Below, one piece after another: positions 10,877 to 19,727 of a stretch of 64,000 nt of DNA. The translations under genes were made by a program, and so were the position numbers. The notes below the pieces were generated by a model. That model was given only the letters and a program-made list of their open reading frames with translations, searched no databases and was not told where the DNA came from. Origin of the DNA: Flavobacteriales bacterium (lineage in GTDB: Bacteria; Bacteroidota; Bacteroidia; Palsa-965). The stretch's first letter is position 1; each line of letters starts with the position of its first letter. The stretch is taken from positions 77,780-141,779 of the forward strand of contig JBEIPA010000014.1 in assembly GCA_040377305.1 (NCBI GenBank), in the 5' to 3' direction.

Positions 10877-11010
10877 CACAGGCAAAAAGCGAAAAGAGAC
10901 TGTTTGCATTGCTCTACCACTGAGCTACACACAACTTTCGCTATGTGGCCGGATTCGAACCGGCGTCCCATGGATTGGAAGTCGAAGTAACTCTTTTCTA
11001 CGGCACTGTT
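10877..11010 (-). ncRNA. Y-RNA-like RNA A (YrlA-like, circularly permuted tRNA cargo)
   Basis: Scaffold TGCCGTA-GAAAAGAG-TTACTTC...CTCTTTTC-GCTTTTTGC; T-arm precedes GAAA-capped acceptor stem, then D-arm. Confidence 0.85.
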
Positions 11011-11089: not shown

Positions 11090-11094
11090 GTGTT

Positions 11095-11178
11095 CAGTAG
11101 GCAGTTTGGCAGTAGTGCAGTTGGCAGTCAAAATATAATTCTCTGACTGCCTACTGCCCAACTGCTTACTGCCTACTG
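11095..11178. repeat. REP/REPIN-like GCAGTAG-unit inverted repeat
   Basis: Tandem cagtaggcagt units facing actgcctactg units; other copies 12557-12642, 18606-18676, 18865-18946, 19126-19201, 55773-55852. Confidence 0.85.
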
Positions 11179-11505: not shown

Positions 11506-11612
11506 TTGTGAGGAAAAAATCACAGAAAAGACGAAAGCGCCATCTTTCGATGTCAGGATTCGAACCTGTTTCTTCCTGCCACGAAGTATCTCTTCTGTTA
11601 CGTCACTCACAA
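11506..11612 (-). ncRNA. Y-RNA-like RNA B (T-arm plus mini acceptor hairpin cargo)
   Basis: TTGTGAG/CTCACAA terminal stem; TGACGTA-ACAGAAGAG-ATACTTCG; CAGGTTCGAATCCTG; CATC-GAAA-GATG. Confidence 0.8.
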
Positions 11613-11639: not shown

Positions 11640-11734
11640 TAAGCGGGCAAAAGTCAATCAGAGTCTGCCGGGATTTGAACCCGCGTCTTTCGACTTTCTA
11701 CCAAAGAAGTATCTCTGATTTACGGCACCGTTTA
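11640..11734 (-). ncRNA. Y-RNA-like RNA C (T-arm, tmRNA 3'-end-like cargo)
   Basis: TAAACGG/CCGCTTA stem; TGCCGTA-AATCAGAG-ATACTTC...CTCTGATT-GACTTTTGC; GACGCGGGTTCAAATCCCG. Confidence 0.8.
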
Positions 11735-12435: not shown

Positions 12436-12553
12436 CGGAAGCAAAAAACGATTCGGGTGGGGCGTCGCAATGAGGATTTGCACCTCTTCCTGGTTTTTAC
12501 ATCAGGACCCTTGCCCCCTGTCGAGCGAAGTATCCCGGCTCTACGGCATTCCG
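12436..12553 (-). ncRNA. Y-RNA-like RNA E (D-armless tRNA-like cargo)
   Basis: CGGAA/TTCCG stem; TGCCGTA-GAGCCGGG-ATACTTCG...CCCGAATC-GTTTTTTGC; GGGGC/GCCCC stem with two hairpins. Confidence 0.75.
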
Positions 12554-12556
12554 TTT

Positions 12557-12642
12557 CAGTAGGCCGTTTGGCAGGCGTTCAGTAGGCAGTCAAAATTTAT
12601 TCCTAATGACTGCCGACTGCACTACCGCACTACTGCCTACTG
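12557..12642. repeat. REP/REPIN-like GCAGTAG-unit inverted repeat
   Basis: Same unit family as 11095-11178. Confidence 0.8.
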
Positions 12643-14547: not shown

Positions 14548-14571
14548 TCTACGCAATGGTCTTGCGCAGTT
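14548..14571. promoter_or_regulatory. Putative WYL-regulator operator upstream of Ro60 gene
   Basis: TCTACGCAATGGTCTTGCGCAGTT, 20/24 identical to reverse complement of 15709-15732. Confidence 0.75.
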
Positions 14572-14655
14572 CGATTTATTTTAACTTTTTGTTTTAATCG
14601 CCTGATTTTCAGTTGGCATTAATTCGTTTTTTCAATCGCAACATTTATTGCGGCG

Positions 14656-14728
14656 TTGGAAAGGAAGGGCTCGAACCTTCGACCTTGTGCGTATAAGGCA
14701 CGTGCTCTTACCACTGAGCTACTCTCCA
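14656..14728 (-). tRNA. tRNA-Ile(TAT)
   Basis: CGTGC-CTTATAC-GCACA; canonical D and T arms; A73. Confidence 0.85.
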
Positions 14729-15285: not shown

Positions 15286-15375
15286 TCAGTTATGACAACA
15301 TCGGTCCACGAATTTTCCTTTCTGAAAATCTCGTTCGCTAAAATTGGGCAAGGCTATATAACTATGTTTCTTCAT
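15286..15375 (-). CDS. Leader peptide MKKHSYIALPNFSERDFQKGKFVDRCCHN (29 aa)
   Basis: Translated by hand; its GTGGACCG can pair with terminator arm CGGTCCGC. Confidence 0.7.
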   Translation of the reverse strand: MKKHSYIALPNFSERDFQKGKFVDRCCHN

Positions 15376-15528: not shown

Positions 15529-15606
15529 TTACACCCCGTGCAACAGACGATCTCCTTCGAGATTTATCTGTTTGCGTGTTTGCGGATATGTAAAATGCTT
15601 TTTCAT
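15529..15606 (-). CDS. Leader peptide MKKHFTYPQTRKQINLEGDRLLHGV (25 aa)
   Basis: Translated by hand; its CGGGGT can pair with terminator arm GCCCCG. Confidence 0.7.
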   Translation of the reverse strand: MKKHFTYPQTRKQINLEGDRLLHGV

Positions 15607-15708: not shown

Positions 15709-15732
15709 AACTGCGCAAATACATTGCGCAGA
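15709..15732. promoter_or_regulatory. Putative WYL-regulator operator (autoregulatory)
   Basis: CTGCGCAA-N5-TTGCGCAG perfect inverted repeat just upstream of WYL gene. Confidence 0.75.
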
Positions 15733-15766: not shown

Positions 15767-16795
15767 ATGCCGATAAACAAACTCGCACTCATCCGCTACA
15801 AGACAATTGATAACTGTCTGCAGAACCGTTTCCGCAAATGGACACTTGACGATCTAGTGGATGCATGCTCGCGTACACTGGAAGAGTTCGAAGGAATTAC
15901 ACAAGGAGTAAGCAAGCGTACTGTTCAGCTCGATATTCAGACGATGCGCAGTGAAAAGCTAGGATACAATGCTCCTATTGTGGTCAGCGACAAGAAGTAT
16001 TATTCGTACGAAGACAAGAATTACAGCATCACGAATATTCCGTTGACGAGTCAGGATTTAGGAACGCTCACGGAAGTTGTAGATATTCTACGCCAGTTTA
16101 AAGGGTTCGGTTACTTCGAAGAGCTCAGCACAATGGTGAACAAGCTCGAGGACAAAGTGCAGTCTCAGAAGAACAAAGGTCGCTCGTATATACACTTTGA
16201 GAAAAATGATTTGCTAAAAGGTCTCGAGTACATCGAATCATTGCACAAGGCGATCATTCGTCAGAAAACGATTGACGTATTATATCAGTCGTTCAAAGCA
16301 CGTGAAGCGACAAGCATCATTTTTCATCCTTATCTGCTCAAGGAATACCGCAACCGCTGGTTTGTGATCGGCTCAACGCAAAAGAAAACAATTCTTACTC
16401 TGGCACTGGATAGAATTTTTTCTGTGAAAGAAGTCGGTGGAGAGAAATACATCAAGAATACCTTCTTTGATGTTGACTCGTACTTTGATGATACGATTGG
16501 CGTTACGAAGAATCTCGGGATTCGACCACAATTGGTCGTGATGAAAATTGATCGTACGAATGCGCCATACGTAATCACAAAACCGATTCACCACACGCAG
16601 AAGATTCTGAAGACAGAACCCGACGGAATGATTTTCAGTATTAACGTGACGTGGAATTTTGAGTTGGAAAGAGAAATCCTTGGGTTTGGTGAACAGATAA
16701 AGGTGTTATCGCCAAAGAGATTGCAGAATAAGATTAGCTGGAGGGTGAAGAGGATGGTGGAGAGGTATGAGGAACTTCAACCAAATGAACGATGA
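15767..16795 (+). CDS. WYL-domain transcriptional regulator (wHTH-WYL-WCX)
   Basis: VSKRTVQLDIQTMR HTH; HPYLLKEYRNRWFVIG, LALDRI, ILGFGEQIKVLSP. Confidence 0.92.
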   Translation: MPINKLALIRYKTIDNCLQNRFRKWTLDDLVDACSRTLEEFEGITQGVSKRTVQLDIQTMRSEKLGYNAPIVVSDKKYYSYEDKNYSITNIPLTSQDLGTLTEVVDILRQFKGFGYFEELSTMVNKLEDKVQSQKNKGRSYIHFEKNDLLKGLEYIESLHKAIIRQKTIDVLYQSFKAREATSIIFHPYLLKEYRNRWFVIGSTQKKTILTLALDRIFSVKEVGGEKYIKNTFFDVDSYFDDTIGVTKNLGIRPQLVVMKIDRTNAPYVITKPIHHTQKILKTEPDGMIFSINVTWNFELEREILGFGEQIKVLSPKRLQNKISWRVKRMVERYEELQPNER

Positions 16796-17880
16796 GCGGC
16801 AAAGTAAATTCATTTCACGAAGCAGTTCGAACGAGACCTGGCATGTATATTGGCAGATTGGGTCCCGCTGGTTTCGGTTATCTTGTCAGCGAACTGATTA
16901 GAGATTTTGCTGCTGACCTGCAAGCAAAAGAAGCGCATGTGAGGATCGACATAAAAGGGAAGGTCACAATTAAATTTCCCGAAATAAATTGCACTCAGGC
17001 TGACCTTTATACTTTAATAAAAAATGGTCGGATGAGTCGCAGTTCTTCATTTTGGAGGACATCACTTGCCATTATCCCGCCGTTATCAAAAGCGACCACG
17101 CTCAAAATCGGAAGCACTAAGTATACTGTCAGCCGCAACGCTAAACTTAATCCTCACTTCGAGTCCGATACCGCTAAAGCTATTTCACGATTTGAAATAA
17201 CCTTTCAACCGGATGCAGGTATTCTCAAAGCCAAAGCGCCTGAAATACTTACTTTATGTGCTCGCTTGCATGAGCTCACGGTGGTTTGTCCCGGATTAAA
17301 AATCACTTACCGTGATGACAATACAAAACCATTTACGCAAATGGTCTGGCATACTCCTGAAGGAATACGCACACTATTGGCGCCGGCACGAAATATGTTT
17401 TATGAAAAGAAATTAGAAGGAGGTTTTTCCTTTAACGAAAAAGGACTACGCGGTGAGGTGTACTGGTTATGTGCAAACGGGGGATGTGATCCTATCTATT
17501 CATTTGCTAACGGTGAACGTACTGTGAAAGGCGGATCGCATGTGAAAGGATGCGTACAAGGTATACTGGACGCGTTGAAGGATTTAGTCAAAGGAAATGG
17601 CGAGAAATATGACTTCAGTGTGTCTCGTGCAATCCGACATCAATGTCTCGTAGTTTCCGTTTGGGGAAACGGCCTAAGCTATGCGGGCAGTACAAAAGAA
17701 TGTCTGGAACATAAACCTACAAACCAAATTCTCCGCAAACTTGTTGGTGCGCACATGGAGCAGCTGTGTGCGTCGAATCCAAAGGATGCTATACAACTTA
17801 CGTATCGGTTGCAGAAATGGAATCTTGCGGAGATGTATCCTGAATTGTATTCCGGAAAATCAAGGAAAAAGAAGAAGTAA
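16792..17880 (+). CDS. Stand-alone degenerate GyrB/ParE N-terminal (GHKL plus transducer)-like protein
   Basis: AVRTRPGMYIG, SFANGERTVKGGSH, YAGSTKECL; no TOPRIM domain. Confidence 0.7.
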   Translation: MSGKVNSFHEAVRTRPGMYIGRLGPAGFGYLVSELIRDFAADLQAKEAHVRIDIKGKVTIKFPEINCTQADLYTLIKNGRMSRSSSFWRTSLAIIPPLSKATTLKIGSTKYTVSRNAKLNPHFESDTAKAISRFEITFQPDAGILKAKAPEILTLCARLHELTVVCPGLKITYRDDNTKPFTQMVWHTPEGIRTLLAPARNMFYEKKLEGGFSFNEKGLRGEVYWLCANGGCDPIYSFANGERTVKGGSHVKGCVQGILDALKDLVKGNGEKYDFSVSRAIRHQCLVVSVWGNGLSYAGSTKECLEHKPTNQILRKLVGAHMEQLCASNPKDAIQLTYRLQKWNLAEMYPELYSGKSRKKKK

Positions 17881-17881
17881 G

Positions 17882-18514
17882 ATGAAAATCATAGCCATTT
17901 CAGATACACACGGTCAGCATGGGAAGGTTGTGCTACCGGAAGGTGATGCGATTATTCACGCTGGTGATGTTTCCGTACGTGGAACTGAATCGCAGATCGT
18001 CGATTTCATCAACTGGTTTTCGGGACTGAACTATCGGTACAAGATTTTCATTGCGGGCAATCATGACTTCTTCTTCGAAAGAGAGTCACAGGAGAAAATC
18101 AAATCTCTGATTCCCGAGAACGTTATATACCTGAACGATTCCGGTATTGAACTAGAAGGAATCAAAATCTGGGGCTCGCCGATTCAACCCTGGTTTCAGG
18201 ACTGGGCGTTTAATCGGCAGAGAGGAATTGATATTCGTAAACACTGGGACATGATTCCGGGTGACACGGATATACTCATCACTCACGGGCCAGCGAAAGG
18301 AATTCTCGATCGCTTGGTTTACGGAGAAGAAGTTGGTTGTGTTGATCTTCTTGACGCGGTTAACAGAATCAATCCCGCCTTTCATGTCTTCGGCCACATT
18401 CATGAAGGATACGGAGAGCATCAAGAAGGGAAAACTAAATTCATTAACGCTGCCGTTCTCAATGAAGATTATTTCCTCGCGAATTCACCAATAGCATTTG
18501 AGTTCCTAAAATAA
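17882..18514 (+). CDS. Metallophosphoesterase (MPPED/calcineurin-like)
   Basis: SDTH, HAGD, AGNHD, THGP, FGHIHE motifs. Confidence 0.92.
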   Translation: MKIIAISDTHGQHGKVVLPEGDAIIHAGDVSVRGTESQIVDFINWFSGLNYRYKIFIAGNHDFFFERESQEKIKSLIPENVIYLNDSGIELEGIKIWGSPIQPWFQDWAFNRQRGIDIRKHWDMIPGDTDILITHGPAKGILDRLVYGEEVGCVDLLDAVNRINPAFHVFGHIHEGYGEHQEGKTKFINAAVLNEDYFLANSPIAFEFLK

Positions 18515-18515
18515 G

Positions 18516-18601
18516 TTGGGTAGGCCGGATTCGAACCGACATGTTTAGCACGTGGCAGCAGATTTACAGTCTGCCCCCTTCACCAGTTTGGATACTACCC
18601 A
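18516..18601 (-). tRNA. tRNA-Tyr(GTA) copy 1
   Basis: GCAGA-CTGTAAA-TCTGC; long variable arm. Confidence 0.88.
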
Positions 18602-18682
18602 GTTTCAGTAAGCAGTTGTGCAGTTGGCGGTATCATAATTTGACTGCTTGCTGCCAGGCTGCACTACTGCCTACTGTTTCAG

Positions 18683-18765
18683 CGGAAGATATAGGAGTCG
18701 AACCCTGTCCTTTCGGACCGCCCCAGATTTCAAGTCTGGTTGACCACCATCGGTCGCTATCTTCC
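18683..18765 (-). tRNA. tRNA-Ser(TGA), imperfect T-stem
   Basis: CCAGA-CTTGAAA-TCTGG; variable arm; G73. Confidence 0.75.
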
Positions 18766-18773
18766 AATAATTG

Positions 18774-18861
18774 CGGAGAACATTGGAATTGAACCAATAG
18801 TTCACTTTCGCGAACGCACATTAGCAGTGTGCTGCAACGAGCCAATAGTTGCCTGCTCTCC
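18774..18861 (-). tRNA. tRNA-Ser(GCT)
   Basis: GCACA-CTGCTAA-TGTGC; long variable arm; G73. Confidence 0.85.
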
Positions 18862-18952
18862 TTACAGTAGGCAGTTGGGCAGTCGTTCAGTAGTCAGTCA
18901 AGTATTTTTTTGACTGCCTACTGCCAAACTGCATTACTGCTTACTGGCAAAG

Positions 18953-19026
18953 TACTCCGAAGCAGATTCGAACTGCTACTTAACGGGGCTTAACGCCGTT
19001 GTCTCTTCCAGTTGGACTACCGGAGT
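18953..19026 (-). tRNA. tRNA-Leu(TAA) lacking long variable arm
   Basis: ACGGC-GTTAAGC-CCCGT; 5-nt variable loop; A73. Confidence 0.75.
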
Positions 19027-19035
19027 AAAAATTAG

Positions 19036-19121
19036 TTGGGTAGACAGGATTCGAACCTGTACGTTTAGCACATGGCAGCAGATTTACAGTCTGCCCCCTT
19101 CACCAGTTTGGATACTACCCA
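19036..19121 (-). tRNA. tRNA-Tyr(GTA) copy 2
   Basis: Near-identical to 18516-18601. Confidence 0.88.
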
Positions 19122-19208
19122 GTTTCAGTAGGCAGTAAGCAGTTGTGCAGTTGGCAGTATCATAATTTGACTGCTTACTGCACACTGCACTGCTGCCTAC
19201 TTCTTTCG

Positions 19209-19281
19209 TAGCGATAAAGAGATTCGAACTCTTACTGAACGGTTTCTAAGACCGTTGCCTCTGCCGTTGGGCTACATCGCT
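19209..19281 (-). tRNA. tRNA-Leu(TAG) lacking long variable arm
   Basis: ACGGT-CTTAGAA-ACCGT; 5-nt variable loop; A73. Confidence 0.82.
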
Positions 19282-19340
19282 ATTTTTTACACAACACTCT
19301 TCCACCTCCACATCGCGAATATTTTTTCGCAACATGAACT

Positions 19341-19375
19341 AAAAACAAAAAGCCTCCTGATGTTTTCAGGAGGCT
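19341..19375 (-). terminator. Attenuator terminator before Leu/Tyr/Ser tRNA cluster
   Basis: AGCCTCCTGA/TCAGGAGGCT stem followed by TTTTTGTTTTT. Confidence 0.88.
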
Positions 19376-19400
19376 CTCGTATACTGTATGATATTACAGA

Positions 19401-19481
19401 TTACACAATACAATCCTCCCTGTCATTCGTGAGTGAATAACTGCTCAATAAGAGGAGAGAATATGTGTTTACTGTTTTCAT
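19401..19481 (-). CDS. Leader peptide MKTVNTYSLLLLSSYSLTNDREDCIV (26 aa)
   Basis: Run of 11 Tyr/Ser/Leu codons; CAGGGAGG complementary to terminator arm CCTCCTG. Confidence 0.8.
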   Translation of the reverse strand: MKTVNTYSLLLLSSYSLTNDREDCIV

Positions 19482-19584
19482 TCTGATGCAAAGGTGAAAC
19501 TTTTTTTCAATCGCTCCGACATGAAGTGGAAAATATTTTTTTGATGCGTGAAAACTAAAACTACATTTGCCGTGAAAGACAACC

Positions 19585-19623
19585 ATGAAGGAAGTCTTCA
19601 ACCATCAACCGCTTCACTCTTGA
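19585..19623 (+). CDS. Putative leader peptide MKEVFNHQPLHS upstream of RNA ligase operon
   Basis: Follows TACATTTG -7 box (19562-19569); followed by CACAGTC/GACTGTG-closed structure. Confidence 0.4.
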   Translation: MKEVFNHQPLHS

Positions 19624-19727
19624 AGTCATGTAATGCCACAGTCATAACCGGTTCGCGCCGGTAATATCATCTGCCTCTTCCTGAGCGCGGACTGTGATTT
19701 TATTATCTTTTCTTAATTCAAATTACC

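Follow-up and report, generated by a model that had tools for sequence, protein, structure and literature searches.

In the 64,000-nt stretch of DNA analysed here (the window), six tRNA genes for Leu, Ser and Tyr follow a short open reading frame (ORF) with an uninterrupted run of Leu, Ser and Tyr codons, raising the question of whether translation of this leader controls transcription of the tRNAs. tRNA calling confirmed the gene order Leu(TAG), Tyr(GTA), Leu(TAA), Ser(GCT), Ser(TGA) and Tyr(GTA) given in the initial annotation (Table 1). As ordinary long-arm Leu, Ser and Tyr tRNAs are encoded elsewhere in the genome, the six array tRNAs are spares. We consider it probable that these spare genes are gated by a ribosome-stalling transcription attenuator.

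Table 1. Features of the Leu/Ser/Tyr cassette and of the companion attenuators of the second tRNA operon. Positions refer to the window.
Feature	Position	Strand	Remarks
Predicted promoter, -7 box CACCTTTG	19489..19496	-	7 nt upstream of the leader ATG; first base off-consensus
Leader peptide ORF, 26 codons, MKTVNTYSLLLLSSYSLTNDREDCIV	19401..19481	-	ORF translation; length and stop position the same in G015 and G013 (same genus)
Putative sensing run, codons 7-17, Leu/Ser/Tyr only	19431..19463	-	5' part UUCUCUCCUC doubles as region 1 of the 1:2 hairpin
Region 2, CAGGGAGG	19415..19422	-	Constrained folding: pairs with region 1 or terminator 5' arm
Intrinsic terminator, 13-bp stem and U tract	19340..19378	-	Stem 19378-19348; stem core invariant in relatives
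tRNA-Leu(TAG), 74 nt	19208..19281	-	Short variable loop (type I body), A73
tRNA-Tyr(GTA), 87 nt	19035..19121	-	
tRNA-Leu(TAA), 75 nt	18952..19026	-	Short variable loop
tRNA-Ser(GCT), 89 nt, divergent	18773..18861	-	Under Rfam gathering score
tRNA-Ser(TGA), 84 nt, divergent	18682..18765	-	Short T-stem, extended acceptor pairing
Second tRNA-Tyr(GTA), 87 nt	18515..18601	-	Convergent metallophosphoesterase gene, whose stop codon borders the 3' end
Companion attenuator 2a of the second array, leader MKKHFTYPQTRKQINLEGDRLLHGV and terminator	15529..15606	-	13/18 window codons cognate; background 0.46
Companion attenuator 2b, leader MKKHSYIALPNFSERDFQKGKFVDRCCHN and terminator	15286..15375	-	13/18 window codons cognate; background 0.46

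The leader peptide, starting from the ATG at 19481, reads MKTVNT YSLLLLSSYSL TNDREDCIV*, and its codons 7-17 (TAT TCT CTC CTC TTA TTG AGC AGT TAT TCA CTC) are exactly the 11 consecutive Leu/Ser/Tyr codons that had been claimed for the 26-codon ORF at 19481-19401. They comprise eight different codons and cover all five codon boxes. By analytic calculation, 25 codons would contain 11 or more such codons in a row with a probability of 1.7e-7 to 1.9e-5 (for a Leu/Ser/Tyr fraction of 0.19-0.30). No other short ATG ORF of the genome has a run of 10 or more (0/37,035), the longest being 9, which places the leader beyond chance relative to this background. The leader itself is excluded from the background set, its frame being open to an upstream ATG at 19586; this in-frame ATG is absent from the same-genus genome G015. 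Both ORFs that reach 9 lack an attenuator context, one lying antisense in a coding region and the other in an rRNA spacer. The further claim that run and array share the same five codon boxes holds at the level of boxes, but CTC (3 of the 11 codons) is normally read by the host Leu(GAG) and would require four-way wobble by the array Leu(TAG).

The promoter of Bacteroidota has the -7 consensus TAnnTTTG. A motif scan against this consensus placed a -7 box directly upstream of the leader, which is invariant in G015 and G013 and from which the start site is predicted; its position would give a nearly leaderless transcript. An internal promoter downstream of the terminator had been named as a refuting observation, and the same scan found no TAnnTTTG-like box between the terminator and the tRNAs (18400-19488, same strand), the only box being that at 19496. 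A scan for sigma-70 promoters stayed at chance level, this consensus being unsuited to the lineage. The strong terminator postulated between leader and tRNAs is borne out by a fold of -21.1 kcal/mol (z -6.4), with 0/200 shuffles as stable. Scanning the whole genome for a -7 box followed by a short ORF and a terminator yielded nine matches, including the Leu/Ser/Tyr leader, leader 2a of the second tRNA operon, and a His-rich leader ahead of hisG. The layout of box, ORF and terminator at hisG is identical to that of the Leu/Ser/Tyr leader, and the hisG leader serves within this genome as a positive control for attenuation of the classical kind.

The switch itself is predicted by folding. The free full-length RNA forms the terminator and a 1:2 hairpin (z -5.8), in which the codon run pairs with AGGGAGGA and TCT CTC CTC of the run is part of region 1. 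Constrained folding also predicts the proposed pairing of CAGGGAGG (19422-19415) with the terminator arm: region 2 and the terminator 5' arm form an antiterminator, which is lengthened by a UUGUAU/AUACGA helix. With a modelled ribosome on the nascent RNA, stalls up to codon 16 leave 6-7 of the 8 bases of the terminator 5' arm sequestered. The number falls to 4 for codon 17 and to 0-2 for codons 18-20, so that the predicted switch point coincides with the end of the codon run (codon 17/18). This pattern is kept for ribosome footprints of 9-15 nt, moving by one codon at 9 or 15 nt, and among 300 codon-shuffled leaders 6 have an equally large switch and 14 equal arm sequestration. In all eight contiguous-run leaders that were modelled (8/8), with terminator arms placed by hand after automatic hairpin finding had mis-located 3 of 14, the sensing window closes 0-2 codons from the end of the cognate run. 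The reading as a trp/his-type attenuator is well supported computationally, with predicted alternative folds that switch where the codon run ends. The antiterminator by itself is modest (z -1.57, 14/200 shuffles as stable). Antitermination is also predicted for stalls at any of codons 2-16, including codons 2-6 (K, T, V, N, T), and in the folding model nascent RNA without a ribosome sequesters 5.7 of 7 arm bases, suggesting that the codon specificity of the switch may be partial and that amino-acid starvation, synthetase inhibitors and ribosome antibiotics could also act as triggers.

We infer translation of the leader, induction of the array and its trigger along the following lines. RNA polymerase would start at the -7 promoter just before the ATG, with a ribosome following on the nearly leaderless mRNA. 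As long as the Leu/Ser/Tyr codons are decoded fast, the ribosome would reach codon 18 or beyond and cover CAGGGAGG, the terminator would form, and the spares would stay silent. With any host isoacceptor absent, blocked or uncharged, the ribosome would be held at codons 7-16 and CAGGGAGG would capture the terminator 5' arm, allowing read-through into the tRNAs; the newly made tRNAs would then relieve the stall and close the loop. Judging from its codon diversity, the run may audit the supply of each host Leu/Ser/Tyr isoacceptor. The leaders of biosynthetic operons use biased codons (PMC1183508), whereas the eight different codons of this run point to tRNA supply, not amino-acid supply, as the quantity that is sensed. 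The likeliest triggers would be toxins or defence nucleases removing or blocking Leu/Ser/Tyr tRNAs, as this fits the RNA-repair island around the array, which encodes two RtcB, PrfH, a TROVE/Ro60 protein, a WYL regulator, an RNA ligase, an HD/AAA_33 protein, a metallophosphoesterase and a 3'-5' exoribonuclease. In a study on whiB7 (PMC10287673), tRNase toxins stall ribosomes at cognate codons, and such stalling at hungry codons is tied to uORF-mediated attenuation; together with the RNA-repair neighbours, this makes it plausible that the leader would be a direct sensor of tRNA damage, as had been proposed initially.

Both Ser tRNA genes of the array are divergent, since they score below the Rfam gathering score and Ser(TGA) was called by ARAGORN only with a lowered threshold. 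Ser(TGA) (18682-18765) has an 8-bp acceptor pairing and a 3-4-bp T-stem, a geometry that we take to recall the 8/4 or 9/3 tRNAs, and a 97% identical copy is present in the related genome G007. Both spare Leu tRNAs (74-75 nt) lack the long variable arm. As the LeuRS of Escherichia coli charges only type II and not type I tRNA-Leu (PMC6614811), they may stay uncharged in this host. A natural short-arm tRNA-Leu that is charged by a bacterial LeuRS is the type I tRNA-Leu(CAA) of Streptomyces coelicolor, described in the same source (PMC6614811), from which the present pair differs in comprising TAG and TAA isoacceptors within a predicted gated spare cassette. The spacers between the tRNAs contain REP-like inverted repeats of ~80 nt (CAGTAGGCAG ... 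CTGCCTACTG) at 19127-19207, 18865-18945, 18600-18680 and 11093-11176, with copies on other contigs.

Among 60 relatives searched for the leader, it was found in two genomes of the same genus, G015 and G013, both of which retain the 26-codon length, the -7 box and the terminator core. The run reads YSLLLLSSYSL in G015 and YYLLSLSSYSL in G013. Three run codons are changed in G015 and five in G013, and all eight (6 distinct changes) stay within Leu/Ser/Tyr, while only 29 of the 99 possible single-base changes of the run would do so and the flanking residues do vary in both genomes. In one case (AGC to TCA in G013), all three bases differ and the codon still encodes Ser. In a further related strain, the one change in the leader lies outside the run, and so little variation is not informative. 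The fit between leader and array is loose in the two relatives, which counts against a tight match: only Leu and Tyr tRNAs lie behind the leader in G013, and the array of G015 breaks off inside Tyr; in both, the Ser codons are kept and the Ser tRNAs are missing. Two other genomes (G007 and G022) carry only the distal Ser/Tyr genes of the array.

Searches beyond the genus used the short-arm tRNA-Leu as a query. A class-wide pattern search for short-arm Leu(TAG) found 2 of 401 genomes, one being G000 and the other carrying a mixed array. A genome-contig scan for the same tRNA found at least 119 loci, which with the two loci of the class-wide search gave 121 examined. A Leu/Ser/Tyr run of at least 8 within 300 nt upstream of the tRNA occurs in 3 of the 121 loci listed, i.e. 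the window and L106 and L130 (genome G426) of the Trueperaceae, and all three precede Leu/Ser/Tyr-only arrays. The remaining 118 listed loci have runs of at most 5, the 300-nt stretch often lying among other tRNAs in mixed arrays. Among the matches listed, most are stand-alone Leu(TAG) genes of Actinomycetota without a leader. Stand-alone short-arm genes of this kind in Streptosporangiaceae, Pseudonocardiaceae and other groups (L027-L145) lie downstream of a peroxiredoxin-like gene, presumably bcp, and may represent a housekeeping type I tRNA-Leu. The Trueperaceae cassette (G425/G426) has a TTGACA-17-TAACCT promoter, the leader MFAH-LSYLSSYL with the run LSYLSSYL, a terminator and a Leu/Ser/Tyr-only array. 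In G530, the array is kept and the 5' half of the leader is replaced; searches at the level of the Deinococcota order and family revealed nothing new beyond this genome (2/151 and 3/128). Three metagenome loci matched a pattern for short-arm Leu(TAA), none of them Leu/Ser/Tyr-only.

Matches between leaders and tRNAs are also seen in phages. Among 101 viral loci examined, L246 has a run of 11, and its source, the phage record G667, contains three tRNA blocks, each with its own promoter, leader and terminator. A block of Lys/Arg/Gly/Glu/Met/Ile/Val/Ala tRNAs follows the leader VIIAGRGAERIVK, a block of Leu/Leu/Ser/Ser/Tyr tRNAs (the second Ser identified by eye) follows a leader with the run YLLSYLSSLSY, and a block of Pro/Asp/Asn/Thr/Phe/Gln/His/Trp tRNAs follows NNWHNTFNNFTPDQQD. 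The three-block design recurs in the phage records L213 and L221, which are possibly kin, each leader again matching its own tRNAs (Leu/Ser/Tyr runs LSYSSLYLL and LLSYYSSSLLL). An automatic screen of 297 loci recovered 59 tRNA blocks behind a terminator, 39 of them with a leader ORF. Five of the seven Leu/Ser/Tyr-only rows have runs of 8-11, the other two being the G667 block, for which the script took the wrong frame, and all non-Leu/Ser/Tyr rows (32/32) have runs of at most 4. Matched leaders also precede viral blocks of other make-up, such as His/Ala/Ser (L319), His/Ser/Arg/Gln/Thr/Leu/Ile (L185/L225) and Phe/Leu/His/Cys/Ser/Gln (L226); many automatically called leader-block pairs are unmatched (e.g. 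L053, L065, L229 and L297). When leaders were permuted among 32 blocks, the observed summed cognate run of 201 compared with 107.6 +/- 13.4 and was reached in 0 of 20,000 permutations, a significance that is overstated, as some rows are related to one another and the window is among them. The permuted set was what remained after seven near-duplicate rows had been dropped (L097, L130, L221 x3, L225 and L246), and block 2 of L331 was kept as a miss, a longer out-of-frame ORF having been called for L246/L331. The comparative test that had been suggested, co-variation of leader codons with array anticodons, had a positive outcome both between phyla and inside individual phage genomes, with G013, G015 and G530 as exceptions.

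The strongest of the other explanations makes the leader a whiB7-type attenuator that answers to translation stress in general: any slowing of the ribosome (antibiotics, rRNA damage) would open the switch, and the Leu/Ser/Tyr match would merely tune it. We regard it as improbable. It would agree with the antitermination predicted for stalls at codons 2-6 and for ribosome-free nascent RNA, with PrfH and RtcB in the same island, with the persistence of Ser codons where Ser tRNAs were lost, and with the induction of a cyanobacterial trn operon by general translational stress (PMC8421152). However, a general sensor would not need the block-specific matching seen within single genomes (G667, L213, L221 and the window), nor would it explain that the runs stop where the sensing window stops. 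The whiB7 uORF attenuator, proposed to respond to VapC5 cleavage of tRNA-Ser(CGA) (PMC10287673), differs from the present leader in being a general stall sensor that drives a transcription factor and has no codon match to a tRNA output.

Less credible is a sensor of Leu/Ser/Tyr starvation or synthetase inhibition instead of tRNA loss. Extra tRNA is no cure for an amino-acid shortage, no biosynthetic gene lies downstream, the run samples eight codons across all isoacceptors, and the three amino acids share no biosynthetic pathway. What speaks for starvation is that classical attenuators sense uncharged tRNA (PMC1183508) and that the proposed mechanism would be blind to the difference between uncharged and absent tRNA. 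Least credible of all, and largely refuted by conservation and co-variation, is that the run merely follows from the need for a pyrimidine-rich RNA that pairs with the purine-rich region 2, or that the ORF arose by chance before an ordinary terminator: TCT CTC CTC does make up region 1 of the 1:2 hairpin, but Phe and Pro codons are absent from the run, AGC, AGT, TAT and TCA are not pyrimidine-rich, the change from AGC to TCA in G013 keeps Ser, the leaders of other blocks form the same folds with other amino acids, and the 32/32 blocks of other make-up have runs of no more than 4.

If a tRNA-sensing attenuator is accepted, the question remains of why Leu, Ser and Tyr are grouped. These are the amino acids with type II tRNAs (PMC6614811), and it is conceivable, if somewhat doubtful, that the leader audits the long-variable-arm families and releases replacements from a stand-alone class II rescue cassette, including Leu tRNAs that have lost the long arm and thereby escape an arm-recognising toxin or anti-phage effector. 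A class II-specific attacker is hinted at by the fact that Leu, Ser and Tyr have long-arm tRNAs while both spare Leu tRNAs lack the arm. Leu/Ser/Tyr-only blocks recur in the genus, in Trueperaceae and in the phage contigs G667 and L213/L221, always with a short-arm Leu, and a second long spare array was not seen in G425/G426 among the candidates scored (150/268 and 150/480). Precedents exist in MenT3, which requires tRNA-Ser's variable loop (PMC11541572), and in AbiEii, which "likely" prefers class II tRNAs, as judged by size only (preprint 10.64898/2026.01.19.700257). One AbiEii-family gene is present in this genome, but such genes are common (3/14 control genomes). The tRNAs are also split differently in the phages L185, L226 and L319, short-arm Leu(TAG) genes that have no leader are common, and the Leu/Ser/Tyr grouping may merely reflect that their 14 codons fill one sensing window, all of which weakens a class II-specific reading. 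Schlafen proteins were rejected as candidate attackers: the bacterial Schlafens tested cut other or most tRNAs, with no class II preference in the available text of PMC13056530 and PMC13462974, and the available part of a further Schlafen preprint (10.64898/2026.05.29.728809) gives no target. If the class II reading is true, a widespread and undescribed attack directed specifically at class II tRNAs would be marked by these cassettes, which occur in phages and in chromosomes of the Bacteroidota type and of Trueperaceae.

Attenuators of the his, trp and leu type are well known, as are the multivalent leaders of thr and ilv. With the biosynthetic leader-peptide attenuators covered in PMC1183508, the Leu/Ser/Tyr leader shares a short ORF with a run of putative regulatory codons and an intrinsic terminator, and its predicted alternative folds correspond to their 1:2, 2:3 and 3:4 scheme. 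It differs in preceding tRNA genes instead of enzyme genes and in using eight codons for three unrelated amino acids. It matches no Rfam leader family and no T-box. In view of the missing Rfam match and the tRNA output, the leader resembles a multivalent leader-peptide attenuator but is outside every biosynthetic leader family. A paper on TrcR is reportedly linked to another relevant system, the L-array or trn operon of Anabaena PCC 7120. The trn operon is also a spare, divergent tRNA array linked to rtcB, and Bacteroidetes are named among the phyla carrying long tRNA arrays (PMC8421152). The Leu/Ser/Tyr cassette and the second operon described below fit the L-array layout, with clustered tRNAs that are redundant with housekeeping copies and with rtcB and TROVE adjacent. 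In Anabaena, control is exerted via direct repeats in the promoter, whereas the blocks considered here carry matched leaders; attenuation, leaders and class II go unmentioned in the portion of the L-array paper available (PMC8421152). Among the mostly open-access papers listed in literature searches, none describes an attenuator of a tRNA operon. If true, our reading would extend the logic of attenuation from the supply of amino acids to the supply of tRNAs, in a feedback loop by which the ribosome checks, one codon after another, the tRNA pool on which it depends. An old question also becomes testable, namely whether the function of spare and phage tRNAs is to stand in for host tRNAs that toxins and defence systems have destroyed. 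Which tRNAs an element expects to lose could be read from its leader codons, and the 140-nt unit could act as a ready-made reporter for tRNA-targeting effectors.

The Leu/Ser/Tyr cassette is not the only spare array of this genome. Contig C7 contains 16 tRNAs in three clusters, ten of them outside the cassette in two clusters, and housekeeping copies of all its array anticodons except Ile(TAT) are present elsewhere in the genome. The second operon (15186-14655, 11417-10773) encodes Gln, Lys, Phe, Asp, Asn and Ile(TAT), followed by TROVE and then by Pro, Glu, His and Arg, all behind the tandem leaders 2a and 2b (Table 1), which possibly constitute an AND gate. This tandem-attenuator operon is conserved in G013 and G015, where 19/21 and 12/15 codons of leader 2b, respectively, are cognate. 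Its tRNA-Ile(TAT) (14655-14728) is the sole Ile tRNA of the genome with a TAT anticodon and could bypass lysidine-dependent AUA decoding; ATA codons are present in both leaders.

Several further elements were observed in the island. The genome has just two copies of the palindrome CT(A/G)CGCAA-N5-TTGCGCAG, one at 15710-15730 before the WYL gene and one at 14549-14569 before TROVE. This palindrome is likely the operator of the WYL regulator; it is absent from the Leu/Ser/Tyr promoter. A similar pair of palindromes lies upstream of the WYL gene in G051. Downstream of TROVE, we found a YrlA-like RNA below the gathering score (10880-10997, E 4e-6) and three more tRNA-like elements (about 12450-12560, 11655-11730 and 11540-11610) with a motif of the type 'GATACTTC ... 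GGTTC(G/A)AATCC'; these are probably Y RNAs. A 362-aa truncated GyrB/ParE-like protein (16792-17880), encoded between the WYL and metallophosphoesterase genes and overlapping the WYL gene stop, is absent from this position in G013. Finally, the divergent RNA ligase/HD-AAA operon (19562-19625, + strand) and the rtcB-prfH operon (25439-25345, - strand) each show a perfect or near -7 box, behind which lies an ORF of 12-14 codons with no clear intrinsic terminator.
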